Shown piece by piece: positions 3,318 to 16,860 of a stretch of 64,000 bases of DNA. The stretch comes from Escherichia coli (lineage in GTDB: Bacteria > Pseudomonadota > Gammaproteobacteria > Enterobacterales > Enterobacteriaceae). The stretch lies in NCBI RefSeq assembly GCF_030013595.1, contig NZ_CP122768.1; one strand, given 5' to 3'. The notes under the pieces were generated by a model. That model did not search any database. It worked only from the letters and a program-made list of their open reading frames with translations, and was not told the DNA's origin. The stretch's first letter is position 1. Each line of letters begins with the position of its first letter. Position numbers and translations under genes: made by a program.

Positions 3318-4055
3318 ATGTGGAAAACACTGCATCAACTGGCGATCCCACCACGGCTGTATCAAATCTGTGGCTGGTTTATACCGTGGCTGGCAATTGC
3401 CAGTGTGGTCGTGCTTACCGTCGGCTGGATCTGGGGATTCGGCTTTGCTCCGGCTGATTATCAGCAGGGAAATAGCTACCGCATTATCTACCTGCATGTG
3501 CCTGCGGCGATCTGGTCGATGGGCATTTATGCATCAATGGCGGTGGCGGCTTTTATTGGCCTTGTCTGGCAGATGAAAATGGCCAACCTGGCGGTGGCGG
3601 CGATGGCCCCCATTGGTGCCGTGTTTACCTTTATTGCCCTGGTTACCGGCTCTGCATGGGGAAAACCGATGTGGGGCACCTGGTGGGTATGGGATGCACG
3701 CCTGACTTCTGAACTGGTGCTGCTGTTTCTGTATGTTGGTGTAATTGCCCTGTGGCACGCCTTCGACGACCGCCGTCTGGCGGGCCGTGCGGCAGGTATT
3801 CTGGTGCTGATTGGCGTGGTGAATCTGCCGATTATTCATTACTCCGTGGAGTGGTGGAACACCCTGCATCAGGGATCAACGCGGATGCAGCAAAGTATCG
3901 ATCCGGCGATGCGTTCGCCGCTGCGCTGGTCGATTTTTGGCTTCCTGCTGCTGTCTGCCACGCTGACGCTGATGCGGATGCGTAATTTAATTTTGCTGAT
4001 GGAAAAACGCCGTCCGTGGGTGAGTGAACTGATACTGAAAAGAGGCCGTAAATGA
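3318..4055 (+). CDS. ccmC: Haem exporter protein CcmC
   Basis: Membrane protein with WGxxWxWD tryptophan-rich motif (WGTWWVWDARL); start trimmed to MWKTLHQ. Confidence 0.9.
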   Translation: MWKTLHQLAIPPRLYQICGWFIPWLAIASVVVLTVGWIWGFGFAPADYQQGNSYRIIYLHVPAAIWSMGIYASMAVAAFIGLVWQMKMANLAVAAMAPIGAVFTFIALVTGSAWGKPMWGTWWVWDARLTSELVLLFLYVGVIALWHAFDDRRLAGRAAGILVLIGVVNLPIIHYSVEWWNTLHQGSTRMQQSIDPAMRSPLRWSIFGFLLLSATLTLMRMRNLILLMEKRRPWVSELILKRGRK

Positions 4056-13146: not shown

Positions 13147-13674
13147 TCATTGATGGCCTGATTTTTCCCACTCAGCCAGGGCGTTTAGTCCGGCTTCACT
13201 CCAGTTATCCAGCTCATCGGGACAATCACCTGCAACATAGCAGAGCTCACAACGCAGCATACGAATTGCCAGCCTGGCATTTTCCCGAAAATCATACTGC
13301 TCAAAGTAATATTGCCCAGCATAATCCTCAAGGCAGATAGCACCATCATCAAGAAATTGCACTTCACAGCATAGTTCCCCGGCTGCATCCTGTACACGCT
13401 GCTGTATGTCATTGTCCGTTACTGGTGCAGGGATTTTACCGTCTCTGGCCTTAACTGCTTTCCAGAACTCGCCCCACGTCATTTCCAGCGTTCTCTCTGG
13501 CCACATTTCAGAAACGGTATCTTTTCCCTGTGCTGGTGGGCTGTTCCGCTGCTCTGTCGCTTCCACATCGATTTTTTTACCGGACATGACCACTTCGCCT
13601 TTCTCGATCCAGTCGTAAACTGTCTGGCGGCTTACGCCTTTGTGTTTGGCATATTCTGCCTTGCTCATAAACAT
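13147..13674 (-). CDS. Small terminase-like winged-HTH protein (Rpp-like packaging-redirection candidate)
   Basis: 175 aa; N-terminal MSKAEYAKHKGVSRQTVYDWIEKG resembles the Nu1/TerS-type HTH; acidic cysteine-containing C-terminus; GAGGGGA ribosome-binding site. Confidence 0.5.
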   Translation of the reverse strand: MFMSKAEYAKHKGVSRQTVYDWIEKGEVVMSGKKIDVEATEQRNSPPAQGKDTVSEMWPERTLEMTWGEFWKAVKARDGKIPAPVTDNDIQQRVQDAAGELCCEVQFLDDGAICLEDYAGQYYFEQYDFRENARLAIRMLRCELCYVAGDCPDELDNWSEAGLNALAEWEKSGHQ

Positions 13675-13844
13675 GACACTTCCCCTCAGACTGTATTAAT
13701 GCGCCGGAAAGCGCGTGTATTTAAATCATCCCAGGAACCGTTGAGCACCAATTAGTTGCGCGAAGTAATCGGCACCAGCGTTCCGAACAATTTCCAACTT
13801 AACGTTCTGATCATTGTTTCCTGCTGCAGGGACAATCCCACGAT

Positions 13845-14498
13845 TCATAGCCAGCGCCCGGATATTTCTTCCAGTTTTTCCAGAGCTGGCTTGCAGGCCG
13901 CATCAATAACTTCACGGACCATTCCGGCGAGCTGTTCTTCTTCTGTCGGCGTTGTTACTTCCACACCTGATGGTTTCCCGCCCTTATCCCATACGCCCAA
14001 CGGTACGAGCGCAACGTGATCGATAAGAAATGGCGTACCCTCAATGAAAAAATTGTCCTCGCCCATTACATCAGGAACTTCTGCCCCACCGGACGCACCA
14101 CAAAACACAACCGACGGGCTGGTGGATACCTCCCCCCGTGCTTTCTGGATGTAATCGATGATTTCCTGCCCGTAAATCCGGCATACGCCCCACACCTCGT
14201 CACCGCGAATATACGGCAACATGACGGTGCCAATAATGCGCGACCGTTCGCCCACGTCTTCAAGGGTTTTGCTTTCGGGATGGTCGATAATGACGGGTAC
14301 TCCGGCGCAACGTTCCAGGAACTGCGGATTGAGATAAGTTTGCGGTGAACGCCAGACAAATTCTTTTTCTTCGGCGCGATAGGCCATTCCGGTTCCTGTG
14401 ATACGCAGGTTAATCAGCCACATGTTGGAAAACTGATAAGGCGACGGTAGCTGACCGTCCCGAATCTGCTTTGCCGCCTCAATTTCTGTTAAAAGCAT
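13845..14498 (-). CDS. Hypothetical protein (217 aa), island cargo of unknown function
   Basis: ORF in the same transcriptional orientation as the packaging module; no motif I can assign. Confidence 0.5.
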   Translation of the reverse strand: MLLTEIEAAKQIRDGQLPSPYQFSNMWLINLRITGTGMAYRAEEKEFVWRSPQTYLNPQFLERCAGVPVIIDHPESKTLEDVGERSRIIGTVMLPYIRGDEVWGVCRIYGQEIIDYIQKARGEVSTSPSVVFCGASGGAEVPDVMGEDNFFIEGTPFLIDHVALVPLGVWDKGGKPSGVEVTTPTEEEQLAGMVREVIDAACKPALEKLEEISGRWL

Positions 14499-14562: not shown

Positions 14563-15156
14563 TCATGCCCCCGCGAGGCTTGCAACGTTAATTTTAACCA
14601 GGCGACGGGGAGGGATTTTGAAAGCACTAAGCCAGTTATTCGGATCCCCCTGATATTCAGTAATCCGCCGTCCGGCTTCATCCATTCTTACGGTTTTACG
14701 CAAATAGCCCGGCGTATTTTCCACAGCCCACTGAACACTGTCTTTTGCAGCCTGGTAAATCTGATCTTCCAGCACCGCCAGCGTTGCAGAATCTGAAACG
14801 GAACGAATATCCACATCACTGAATTTTTTAGCCAGCTTCTGTGCACCAATTAATGCACGCTTGCGGTAATCCATCGACTTTTCACCAGCAAACGGGGCTG
14901 GAGCGCGACGGCCCATATTGCTGTATGCGGAATCCGCTTTAGCCTGGGCTTCTGCCAGTGAGGATTCATCTTCGACTGACGCGACGATGTTTTTATTCGC
15001 GTCATCCTCGTCCGCTTTTGTGAAATCCTGTGCGGGGATCGCATTCAGAATTTCGATAATCTCCTGCGGAGTGCTGCCCTGCGACTCTGACAGAGCGTTA
15101 ACCACCTCCATCAGTTTTAATCGCAAATCTTCTTTGCTTGCTGGCATTTTTACCAC
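14563..15156 (-). CDS. Hypothetical protein (197 aa), acidic and Ala/Lys-rich, predicted largely helical
   Basis: ORF adjacent to the 217-aa ORF; composition resembles scaffold or decoration-like proteins, but this is unverified. Confidence 0.5.
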   Translation of the reverse strand: MVKMPASKEDLRLKLMEVVNALSESQGSTPQEIIEILNAIPAQDFTKADEDDANKNIVASVEDESSLAEAQAKADSAYSNMGRRAPAPFAGEKSMDYRKRALIGAQKLAKKFSDVDIRSVSDSATLAVLEDQIYQAAKDSVQWAVENTPGYLRKTVRMDEAGRRITEYQGDPNNWLSAFKIPPRRLVKINVASLAGA

Positions 15157-15186: not shown

Positions 15187-15366
15187 TCAGGCCGGACGTT
15201 CTACGGGATAAAGCGCCCGCTGCATTAAACGCCGGGCGACCTCATGAATGCTCGGAGCAATCCCCAGCGGAGAATTGCGGCGTTCCTCGTCCTGGATGCG
15301 CTGTAATGCTTCAATCTGATCACGAGCGAGTAAAACGGGTTTCACGCTGGCTTTTCTCATAGTCAT
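15187..15366 (-). CDS. Hypothetical small basic protein (59 aa), possible DNA-binding regulator
   Basis: AGGAG ribosome-binding site upstream of ATGACTATG; first gene after tandem terminators, so it probably heads its own transcription unit. Confidence 0.4.
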   Translation of the reverse strand: MTMRKASVKPVLLARDQIEALQRIQDEERRNSPLGIAPSIHEVARRLMQRALYPVERPA

Positions 15367-15489
15367 ATCTCCTGAACAAAACAATGATTATGATTGCACA
15401 AACTGAAATAACGATCTACATCATTGCAATTTATGAAACAATAACGCATGATGATCGCGTTCTTCCCATTGACTTCAATCACCTGAAAA

Positions 15490-15560
15490 ACAAAGCCCGC
15501 AACACTTCTGGCTGCGGGTTTTTTACTGGCACAAAAAAGCCGGGAAAAATCCCGGCCTCC
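15490..15560 (-). terminator. Tandem rho-independent terminators downstream of the PerC-like gene
   Basis: Two hairpins (GCCGGGA...TCCCGGC and CCCGCA...TGCGGG), each followed by a T-run on the minus strand. Confidence 0.55.
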
Positions 15561-15561
15561 G

Positions 15562-15849
15562 TCACTGACTGCAATTTTTCGATCCAGGGTATTTCCTGAA
15601 TGCCTTACCATTGGGCTGATGTAATCCCATCCCGGCATGTGCCCGGCTGATGGTTTCGCGCATTTCCCCGAAATTATCCTGCCTTGCTGGTGGGCGTGCT
15701 GCCTTGCGGATACATTCCGCGCGACGTTTTGCCGCCTGTTCCCGTGCCTTGTCATCATTCGCCAGCATGATGACCTCAGCCCACCGCGCCGCCGCTCTCC
15801 GGTACAGACCACGCGCTTCCAGTGCTTCCGCTTTGCTGTCGTGAATCAT
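15562..15849 (-). CDS. PerC-family transcriptional regulator-like protein
   Basis: 95 aa; N-terminus MIHDSKAEALEARGLYRRAAARW matches my memory of the PerC/Pch family; GGAGAA ribosome-binding site; 4-nt overlap with the upstream gene. Confidence 0.55.
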   Translation of the reverse strand: MIHDSKAEALEARGLYRRAAARWAEVIMLANDDKAREQAAKRRAECIRKAARPPARQDNFGEMRETISRAHAGMGLHQPNGKAFRKYPGSKNCSQ

Positions 15850-16388
15850 GCGCCTGTTTTCTCCTTTGCTGCCCGGCGCTGACGTTTGCGCTTCTCATTC
15901 AGCGCCACCAGCCGCGTTTCTGCGTCCTGTTGTTCCTGTGGTGTCACCTCGCCGCACGGCTGGCCTTTCAGGTCGTAGCGTACCCCACCAGCCATTAAGG
16001 CGCGGTAATAGCGCGGACACTGCGCATAAGATGCCAGCGTCGCACGCAATGCCCCTGGACCGAATGCCAGCCCCCTGACGGCGAGATCCTGCATCAGGTC
16101 GTCGAATATCCCCACCTTAAGCGGCTTCGGTGCTTCCCGGCTGAATAATTCAGGCCACAACTCAGTGAGGCGGTTAACGCGCCTGCGGTTTTTGCGCTGG
16201 CGTTTGGTCATATGCCGCCACGGTGTCGCCCCTGTGGGCTTCTGCTGCGCTTTCTGGTTACCGGGCATCACTTTATGCGCCGATGTGGTTTTATCCTGCT
16301 CCTGCGCCGCCTGCGTCGTTTTCTGCGGCGTGCCGTAAATGCCTTTCGGTTTTCTGTTAATGGTCAGCTTAGTCATGCTTTGCCCCAT
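15846..16388 (-). CDS. FinO/ProQ-family RNA-binding protein-like
   Basis: 180 aa; basic N-terminal region followed by LKVGIFDDL...YAQCPRYYRAL, resembling the FinO/ProQ fold. Confidence 0.5.
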   Translation of the reverse strand: MGQSMTKLTINRKPKGIYGTPQKTTQAAQEQDKTTSAHKVMPGNQKAQQKPTGATPWRHMTKRQRKNRRRVNRLTELWPELFSREAPKPLKVGIFDDLMQDLAVRGLAFGPGALRATLASYAQCPRYYRALMAGGVRYDLKGQPCGEVTPQEQQDAETRLVALNEKRKRQRRAAKEKTGA

Positions 16389-16439: not shown

Positions 16440-16860
16440 TTCATTTTTAACATTCCTGATTTTTTAATTCCTCACCTGCTGCACAGTGAAAATTTATGAA
16501 GTTAATAACAATATGATTTTAAATGTATTTTTAAGTACTCACTTTTTAATCCTTATATATACGCAAAAGTGAGGTAAATAGTTAAGTTTTAGTTAATATC
16601 TTGCATGGTGTGTTTTTTAACCTACCTGTTATTTTTATTACCTCATTTCTATTAACTCACCATTCCTCACTTTTGTTCCTCACTTTTTATTATTCTTGTT
16701 CTGCTCCTCAGTCGTTTTCTTTATTGTTGTAATCTGTTGTTTTGCAATGTGTTTTTAACTCCTCACTTTTTGACCTATATACAGGTGAGAAAGTGAGGAG
16801 TGGCGTTGATTTTTTGTTAAATTACCCGCCATCCTCACTTTTGCTCCTCACTTTTTACAG
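16440..16860. repeat. Putative satellite replication origin: AT-rich region with CCTCACTTTT iterons
   Basis: At least 8 copies of CCTCACTTTT (direct and inverted) plus degenerate copies, immediately downstream of the RepA-like gene. Confidence 0.7.

Follow-up and report, generated by a model that had tools for sequence, protein, structure and literature searches.

Small ribbon-helix-helix proteins that head operons commonly repress their own promoter through repeated sites, the classic example being Arc at Pant of bacteriophage P22. In the P22 immI region (Pant-arc-ant), the leading gene of the operon encodes Arc, the ribbon-helix-helix repressor that shuts this operon off. We analysed an element of similar design in Escherichia coli, consisting of two 16-bp boxes in the gap that separates a perC-like gene from a packaging-side unit, within a satellite of about 10 kb that is a member of the known family of Gram-negative phage-inducible chromosomal islands (PICIs). 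Positions refer to the window, the 64-kb stretch of contig NZ_CP122768.1 that was analysed, unless another sequence is named. On comparative grounds, the gap at 15361-15490 is probably an independent promoter-operator cassette on the minus strand, the strand that carries all of the relevant genes.

The design of the cassette resembles that of Pant-arc. The window differs from P22 in having two boxes 30 bp apart and no -35 element, in the putative status of binding and regulation, and in the genes downstream, which serve morphogenesis and packaging where that of P22 encodes an antirepressor; there is no sequence similarity between the two. In role, the unit would be like operon I of the staphylococcal pathogenicity islands (SaPI), the LexA-controlled packaging and interference operon of those islands in the account of Ubeda 2007 given in PMC6092414: it would be a separately controlled late satellite operon with capsid, packaging and interference genes, and relatives of the window promoter also have LexA boxes over the predicted start. 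Unlike operon I, the window promoter has no LexA box, and it shows no sequence homology to operon I, nor does the two-box element have a SaPI counterpart. The P4 promoters Psid and PLL, whose activator is P2 Ogr or P4 Delta, likewise drive a satellite late operon from a separate promoter with a weak -35 element. However, the TGT-N12-ACA motif of Ogr/Delta late promoters is absent from both strands of 15361-15561, and the window island is of the PICI and not the P4 type.

The Gram-negative PICI literature that we examined covers the AlpA switch and Rpp-mediated packaging only; expression of the interference and packaging genes is not addressed in it, and a two-box promoter is not described there, EcCICFT073 included. 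The promoter-operator cassette with its ribbon-helix-helix gene appears to be undescribed for these islands, while the kind of mechanism, a small autoregulator at its own promoter, is ordinary. The analysis offers a conserved cis-element, made up of two boxes and a -10 and frequently accompanied by a LexA box, and a candidate trans factor, the 57-amino-acid (57-aa) putative ribbon-helix-helix protein of the first gene, and both are directly testable in EcCICFT073, which is genetically tractable.

Boxes, predicted promoter and terminators

The box is a 16-bp pseudo-palindrome, TTTCA-N5-TGCAAT (TTTCANNNNNTGCAAT), present as two direct copies on the minus strand, 30 bp from start to start (Table 1). 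Exact matches to the pattern occur twice in the window, both times in the gap, against 0.06 expected from shuffles. When the window was scanned with a position-weight matrix derived from the box family, box 1 was the best site (23.8 bits) and box 2 the second best (19.7 bits); the rest of the island, the alpA and int promoter regions included, has no site comparable to them. More generally, the box can be written TTKCA-N5-TGMAA, an imperfect palindrome whose half-sites lie one helical turn from each other around an A/T-rich centre. A previous sequence-only reading had described inverted ATTGCA repeats here. The plus-strand words are indeed present (GATTGCA at 15392-15398 and CATTGCAAT at 15422-15430), and GATTGCA-type 6-mers are unremarkable taken alone, but they are not inverted repeats: they are the TGCAAT halves of the two direct 16-bp boxes, and the inverted reading arose because ATTGCAAT is self-complementary.

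Box 2 is directly followed by the hexamer CATAAT, which we infer to be a -10 element from its conserved position in relatives. In the mechanism that we propose, transcription coming from the alpA-rep-finO-perC side would be stopped at the tandem terminators T1 and T2. About 50 bp past them, a sigma-70-type promoter with a good -10 and without a -35 would start transcription near 15380, at the head of a morphogenesis and packaging-side unit that comprises the small gene, the 194-aa gene, the DUF2213 gene and the TerS/Rpp-like gene. The 57-aa protein, as a ribbon-helix-helix protein, would bind as a dimer of dimers, with a dimer on each of the two TTGCA-like half-sites of a box. Box 2 would fill the spacer and the -35 region, so that its occupancy would block RNA polymerase, resulting in negative autoregulation as by Arc at P22 Pant. 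What is established here is the terminators, the two boxes with their spacing and conservation, and the modelled fold of the protein; the start site, the binder of the boxes, and the negative as opposed to positive effect are all what we infer from this arrangement, and for the explanation as a whole, an insulated cassette under negative autoregulation by the ribbon-helix-helix protein of the first gene, we see the balance as even.

Both terminators consist of a GC-rich hairpin followed by a U-tract, as Rho-independent terminators do, and the RNA fold of the T1-T2 stretch forms both hairpins (-35.1 kcal/mol, z = -2.7). This confirms the tandem terminators that had been claimed to end the rep-finO-perC transcript. 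T2 also has an upstream A-tract, which makes it a terminator on the plus strand too. An Rfam search gave weak, sub-threshold matches only, and these lay on the terminators. The perC side resembles that of more than 150 other E. coli islands through T1, and the similarity ends near 15531; since it stops between T1 and T2, each module has its own terminator, with the module junction (15523-15534) between them. T1 stays with perC in more than 150 genomes, while T2 stays with the boxes and the small gene, and is retained together with the boxes in class A islands (the class of the window) and WP2 islands. The downstream side is less widespread, being common to 33 genomes at 98-100% identity, with diverged versions at 83% and ~68%. 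A terminator-like hairpin within 130 nt upstream of box 1 was found in 38 of 69 distinct regions, from many lineages.

Several smaller features of the same region were noted. Between T2 and box 1 (15443-15461) there is a short inverted repeat, AACGC-gatcatcat-GCGTT, which occurs in class A only. The window has a GATC at 15413-15416, and Dam GATC sites adjoin the boxes in several lineages (gtaGATCgtta, aatGATCa, acGATCGaat); methylation-sensitive control at such sites is possible. A 71-aa open reading frame (ORF) on the plus strand (15384-15599) crosses the terminators and is probably a spurious call over a regulatory region; the same probably holds for the 66-aa plus-strand 'hypothetical protein' that RefSeq gives over the box region of strain 55989 (L002 6102-6302). 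The 194-aa gene contains a third box-like site, an exact TTTCA-N5-TGCAA that has the orientation of box 2 and lies downstream of it at a distance of about 610 bp. Diverged class A loci retain this site, which may be an auxiliary operator, or else a match due to chance that the coding sequence has preserved.

Conservation of the layout across islands and genera

We searched IMG/VR with the small protein, and not with the DNA motif, as the anchor, which gave 80 loci falling into 8 clusters at 70% protein identity. In all 80 loci, bar one on a truncated contig, the order is box 1, 14 bp, box 2, hexamer, Shine-Dalgarno sequence and ATG. The layout of the two boxes with their 14-bp spacer was kept in every one of the 8 small-protein lineages, at 30 bp start to start in each, and the distance from the end of box 2 to the ATG is 28-42 nt, with the exception of one contig (L086). 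The hexamer abutting box 2 is TATAAT, TAAAAT or CATAAT in about five of the 8 lineages, TATAAT being the commonest across lineages and CATAAT that of the window lineage. Within the gap, an alignment of five diverged islands shows conservation of the two boxes and the ribosome-binding region only; the spacer between the boxes and the flanks are variable. The cassette is also found downstream of unrelated genes and of other terminators.

The exceptional contig, L086 (58 kb, from IMG/VR), has two double-box promoters, at 405-450 and 3707-3758, as would be expected of a trans-acting regulator with a small regulon. One precedes a tape-measure-like (tail-module) gene, and the other an operon in which a 65-aa ORF sits between the double-box promoter and the ribbon-helix-helix gene; the cassette is thus one gene further upstream, and reads terminator, TTGCATGGACTGCAAC, 14 bp, TTGCAATTTATGCAAT, CATAAT. 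The boxes of L086 are perfect palindromes, TTGCA-N5-TGCAA, and its ribbon-helix-helix gene is followed by P194-like, DUF2213-like and two TerS-like genes.

The same layout was found in Serratia oryzae, Pectobacterium zantedeschiae and Pluralibacter gergoviae by a scan of genome contigs with a degenerate pattern; among the matches listed most were due to chance, the real ones being those in Serratia, Pectobacterium, Pluralibacter and one further locus (L262). The source names of the small-protein family also include Citrobacter, Enterobacter, Lelliottia and Salmonella. In genome records of Escherichia, Serratia, Pectobacterium and Pluralibacter it is with this cassette that the late module begins, and as a marker it could aid the annotation of satellites and the design of engineered PICIs.

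Variants of the arrangement were also seen. In L029 (2196-8113) and L128 (3923-7298) the cassette heads much larger units with tail-type genes, which include one for an SLT/tape-measure-like protein of 667-901 aa and, in L029, ORFs that are baseplate-like as judged from translations only; the L029 unit ends with a TerS/Rpp-like gene. Elements of this type would be satellites with tail-module genes. In class B promoters, the type of strain 55989 (L100, L054; L002 6103-6165), box 2 is followed by an additional, overlapping box-like copy (TGCAATAATTGCAAT); some also have a 9-bp tandem duplication (AATTGCAAT), and there is no -10 at the usual place. A very similar pair, TTTCATTCTGTGCAAT-N14-TTTCATGATGTGCAAC, lies in a long intergenic region of virulent Klebsiella phages of the Webervirus type (~51 kb; 'class E', found in L007, L014, L017, L050, L052, L053, L060 and L061; for example, L060 1181-1225). 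These class E double boxes have no adjoining -10, and no ribbon-helix-helix homolog nearby.

We compared the window with EcCICFT073. Like the window, EcCICFT073 has perC, two terminators, box 1 (TTTCATAATTTGCAAC), 14 bp, box 2 (TTGCTCAAAATGCAAT), a small first gene, morphogenesis genes and rpp; the small first gene is followed by a capsid-like gene, a decoration gene and rppA. Unlike the window, EcCICFT073 has TATAAT 7 nt after box 2, then a perfect LexA palindrome, and a longer 5' leader, and its Rpp is of a different family from the window TerS/Rpp-like protein, which has no detectable similarity to RppA. The LexA palindrome comes after both boxes and before the first gene of the capsid-rppA block. 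The LexA box at this promoter is not mentioned in the Gram-negative PICI literature examined, and literature searches gave no usable data on the expression of CFT073 c1500/c1501; the papers searched yielded no start-site data.

We scored LexA sites with a matrix built from E. coli LexA sites. The sites in relatives lie just after the -10, over the predicted start site. The EcCICFT073 site, AACTGGATGAACATCCAGTT (together with the TATAAT before it, L068 15402-15429; CFT073 NC_004431.1 ~1385401-1385428), scored 21.3 bits, followed by GACTGTATATAAAACCAGCC in L133 (17.7 bits), GACTGTTGTTTTATACAGTT in L132 (17.1 bits), ACCTGTATGAACATACAGAG in Serratia oryzae (L172; 16.7 bits) and TACTGTATAAATATCATGTA in L138 (14.6 bits). 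In the largest lineage, class D (L128), the site is one base short (CTGTATAAATATCAGG) and scores 7.2-7.5 bits; classes B and C (the latter of the ABU 83972 type) have none, with negative scores. The window promoter itself (class A) has no LexA box, its best score being -6.6 bits with no CTG-N10-CAG.

These comparisons bear on the possibility that the unit has no start of its own, and that it is instead transcribed by read-through of T1 and T2, for example by an AlpA-modified RNA polymerase, the boxes being unrelated to initiation. AlpA of Pseudomonas aeruginosa is a processive antiterminator (PMC7969949, PMC9371919) and belongs to the same Pfam family that the window AlpA matches (PF05930); the island genes are all co-oriented; and class C islands are left with T1 alone, with its U-tract degraded. 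Read-through, however, does not explain the fixed distance of the -10 to box 2 and to the start codon across diverged lineages, nor does it fit with the cassette also following unrelated upstream genes and other terminators, and LexA boxes exactly over the predicted start in relatives make sense only at a promoter. We consider read-through to be quite improbable as the explanation.

It could also be argued that the boxes are not transcriptional sites at all, but serve packaging (as cosB or pac for the TerS/Rpp-like protein) or replication (as iterons). The 16-bp boxes are of the same length as the lambda R elements, the unit ends with a gene for a TerS/Rpp-like DNA-binding protein, and PICI cosB is known to differ from phage cosB (PMC6739421). 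In EcCICFT073, however, the cosN sites (L068 17559-17570 and 18298-18309) flank rppA, ~2 kb from the boxes, and on this ground we rejected the boxes as cosB. Moreover, the boxes are always at a fixed distance from the -10, the Shine-Dalgarno sequence and the ATG, and the replication genes are in the upstream module. Of a packaging or replication role for the boxes we would expect very little, and regard it as most improbable.

Candidate regulators of the cassette

The first gene of the unit had been taken for a 59-aa ORF. A protein of 57 aa is likelier: the second ATG (15360) has AGGAG 8 nt upstream, a sequence that is only 2 nt from the first ATG, and RefSeq gives the 57-aa form. The product models as a ribbon-helix-helix DNA binder, the fold of NikR, CopG-type antitoxins, AmrZ and omega, with the strand-helix-helix order present in the model. 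When two copies were modelled as a dimer joined by a flexible linker, strands formed at 6-12 and 83-89, positions that correspond to residues 6-12 in both copies, in keeping with a paired ribbon, and the predicted local distance difference test score (pLDDT) was 83-90 in the folded parts of this model. The most conserved stretch of the small-protein family is the strand, VKPVLL. One lineage offers a suggestive co-variation, in which KVVPVLL goes together with TCCCA/TTTTA half-sites. GTTGCA, the reverse complement of a TGCAAC half-site, is read by the ribbon-helix-helix domain of E. coli PutA (PDB 2rbf, the domain on its operator); a literature search on this operator gave nothing usable. PutA is a large host enzyme-repressor, and the window boxes read ATTGCA, not GTTGCA; all that the likeness shows is that sites of this kind can be read by a ribbon-helix-helix fold. 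From the linkage of its gene to the boxes, the 57-aa protein is the likeliest candidate for their binder, with slightly less than an even chance of being it.

A number of results weigh against the proposed mechanism. The 57-aa protein has no sequence match in Pfam, PHROG or PDB, and 20 members of the small-protein family, searched against Pfam at E values up to 10, matched no family. The hhalign probability of the small protein against CopG was 0.2%, and no match to a curated ribbon-helix-helix sequence family was found. Box half-sites scarcely co-vary with the strand of the protein. The first-gene product of EcCICFT073 (68 aa) gave an hhalign probability of only 2.7% with the 57-aa protein (alignment A4); an earlier comparison using alignment A2 was discarded as circular, as A2 contained the EcCICFT073 sequence. 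EcCICFT073 keeps the boxes with a first gene that is not demonstrably related, as it would if some factor other than the first-gene product were common to the islands. On the DNA side, there is no usable -35 element in the window, ATCGTT at 17-bp spacing (or TCGTTA) having 1-3 of 6 matches, and a consensus sigma-70 scan found no promoter in the gap. The scan misses the predicted CATAAT promoter because the -35 is absent; taken together, the lack of a -35 and of a scanned promoter means that the promoter may need an activator and not a repressor. In classes B and C, box 2 is not followed by a -10-like hexamer. Finally, the four genes may or may not share one transcript, as there is a hairpin at 14546-14523 and the TerS-like gene is preceded by a gap of 170 bp.

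Some of these results would be accommodated if the boxes were sites for a positive factor that replaces the -35 element, such as a helper protein, PerC, AlpA or a host regulator; the unit would then be turned on in trans, as the sequence-only reading had it. None of the 8 lineages has a good -35, the LexA box over the predicted start in relatives shows layered control, and the retention of the boxes in EcCICFT073 despite its different first gene is consistent with a trans factor common to the islands. Genes of EcCICFT073 are known to be activated by AlpA, whose own gene is induced by helper phages (PMC6092414). Against this, each of the named factors meets a difficulty. PerC lies within 4 kb upstream in only 44 of the 80 protein-anchored loci, all of which have the boxes bar the one truncated contig, and this weakens PerC as the binder. 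No box lies by the alpA or int promoters of the window island or EcCICFT073, which tells against AlpA as the binder, its own promoter being without boxes. Lambda is a proven helper of EcCICFT073 (PMC6092414), but neither lambda nor the lambdoid prophage stretch of CFT073 carries a double box, and a blastn search of 50,697 phage records with the gap as query gave nothing better than E = 1; the same results led us to reject the boxes as mimics of a helper promoter or operator. In addition to the Ogr/Delta motif, the CII site (TTGC-N6-TTGC) is absent from the gap, as is the sigma-54 motif TGG-N9-TGC from both of its strands, the boxes reading TTTCA where the GG element is expected. Besides, a site centred near -20 is unusual for an activator. 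We regard a positive factor as a somewhat unlikely explanation of the boxes.

The sequence-only reading had claimed that the cargo and TerS-like genes are controlled independently, possibly by a helper late activator or by the PerC-like protein of the island. A self-contained region is supported comparatively by the terminators, the break in similarity and the conserved layout, whereas the two regulators named are not: PerC does not accompany the boxes regularly enough, and lambda, the CFT073 lambdoid prophage and the Ogr/Delta motif give no sign of a helper late activator. The product of the first gene, as the candidate that suggests itself most readily, was overlooked in that reading.

It is conceivable, if unlikely, that the two-box cassette and the ribbon-helix-helix protein form a second dedicated PICI switch, apart from the AlpA-driven excision-replication switch, and double-locked by LexA in many islands, EcCICFT073 included. 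If this were true, the interference, capsid and packaging genes would be gated separately, and the satellite would read the host SOS state directly, like SaPI operon I. A helper-encoded antirepressor acting on the small protein might then release the cassette.

Island setting and neighbouring features

The satellite adjoins tRNA-Pro(ggg) (22172-22248). A 16-bp direct repeat at 22038 and 12057 presumably represents the att site and gives candidate ends of the island, its spacing corresponding to ~10 kb. As in other PICIs, a tyrosine integrase is encoded at one end by a specific attachment site, and alpA and a replication (pri/rep) module are co-oriented, without a full set of phage structural and lysis genes. 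The gene order (Table 1) is the same as in annotated E. coli islands. In strain cq9, the stretch from perC to the 194-aa gene is identical (100% over 801 bases); the RefSeq annotation of that stretch agrees with ours, except that the small genes are 'hypothetical', and it names the perC-like gene a PerC family regulator.

Table 1. Features of the island and of the putative cassette, in order of transcription (window positions)
Feature	Position	Strand	Sequence, match or remark
Integrase gene	20721-21962	-	homologous gene at the same place in the related cq9 island annotated tyrosine recombinase
AlpA gene	19987-20193	-	Pfam PF05930, E = 4.5e-8
DUF4222 gene			between the AlpA and RepA-like genes
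RepA-like replication protein gene	16855-18270	-	AAA_25, E = 2e-44
ProQ/FinO-like gene	15846-16388	-	
perC-like gene	15562-15849	-	Pfam PF06069 PerC, E = 2.2e-32; last of the upstream rep-finO-perC block
Terminator T1	15533-15556	-	GCCGGGA-tttt-TCCCGGC then U6; part of the perC module
Terminator T2	15486-15518	-	CCCGCAG...TGCGGG then CTTTGTTTTT; goes with the downstream module
Box 1, putative distal operator	15423-15438	-	TTTCATAAATTGCAAT; predicted span about -58 to -43
Box 2, putative proximal operator	15393-15408	-	TTTCAGTTTGTGCAAT; predicted span about -28 to -13, abuts the -10
Predicted -10 hexamer	15387-15392	-	CATAAT, read from sequence; A at position 2, T at position 6
Predicted transcription start	15379-15382	-	about 7 nt after the -10
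Shine-Dalgarno sequence	15369-15373	-	AGGAG, 8 nt upstream of the ATG at 15360
First gene of the unit	15187-15360	-	57-aa protein, candidate box-binding autoregulator
194-aa gene	14563-15147	-	C-terminal part of phrog_6216, PHROG E = 8.4e-47
Third box-like site	14783-14798	-	TTTCAGATTCTGCAAC, inside the 194-aa gene, 13.9 bits
DUF2213 gene	13845-14498	-	217 aa, head-maturation protease-like; Pfam PF09979, E = 2.2e-6; phrog_6216, E = 2.3e-79; phrog_530
TerS/Rpp-like gene	13147-13674	-	175 aa, last of the unit; phrog_57 terminase small subunit, E = 5.4e-7

A lambda-type cosN was not found in the window island, the best match (at 20380) having 2 mismatches. The 170-bp non-coding gap directly upstream of the TerS/Rpp-like gene (13675-13844) is at the position of a cos site in EcCICFT073. 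The 175-aa protein has an N-terminal helix-turn-helix, with a sub-threshold match to Pfam HTH_17 (20.8 bits against a cut-off of 27 bits).

On the early side of the island, a LexA-box-like sequence, TACTGGTTTTTTGTACAGTT (20703-20722), scored 19.5 bits and is the sole match above 12 bits in the 64 kb. It directly follows the stop codon of the integrase gene; a TATAAT near 20672 lies about 30 nt further downstream, and an 80-aa ORF and alpA come after it. This position suggests an SOS input into the early side of the window island. Induction of alpA in EcCICFT073 is reported to be SOS-independent.

The 194-aa and DUF2213 proteins match different parts of phrog_6216 (545 positions), at 405-544 and 115-315, respectively. 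They look like a split phage protein, the parts of which are encoded in swapped order.

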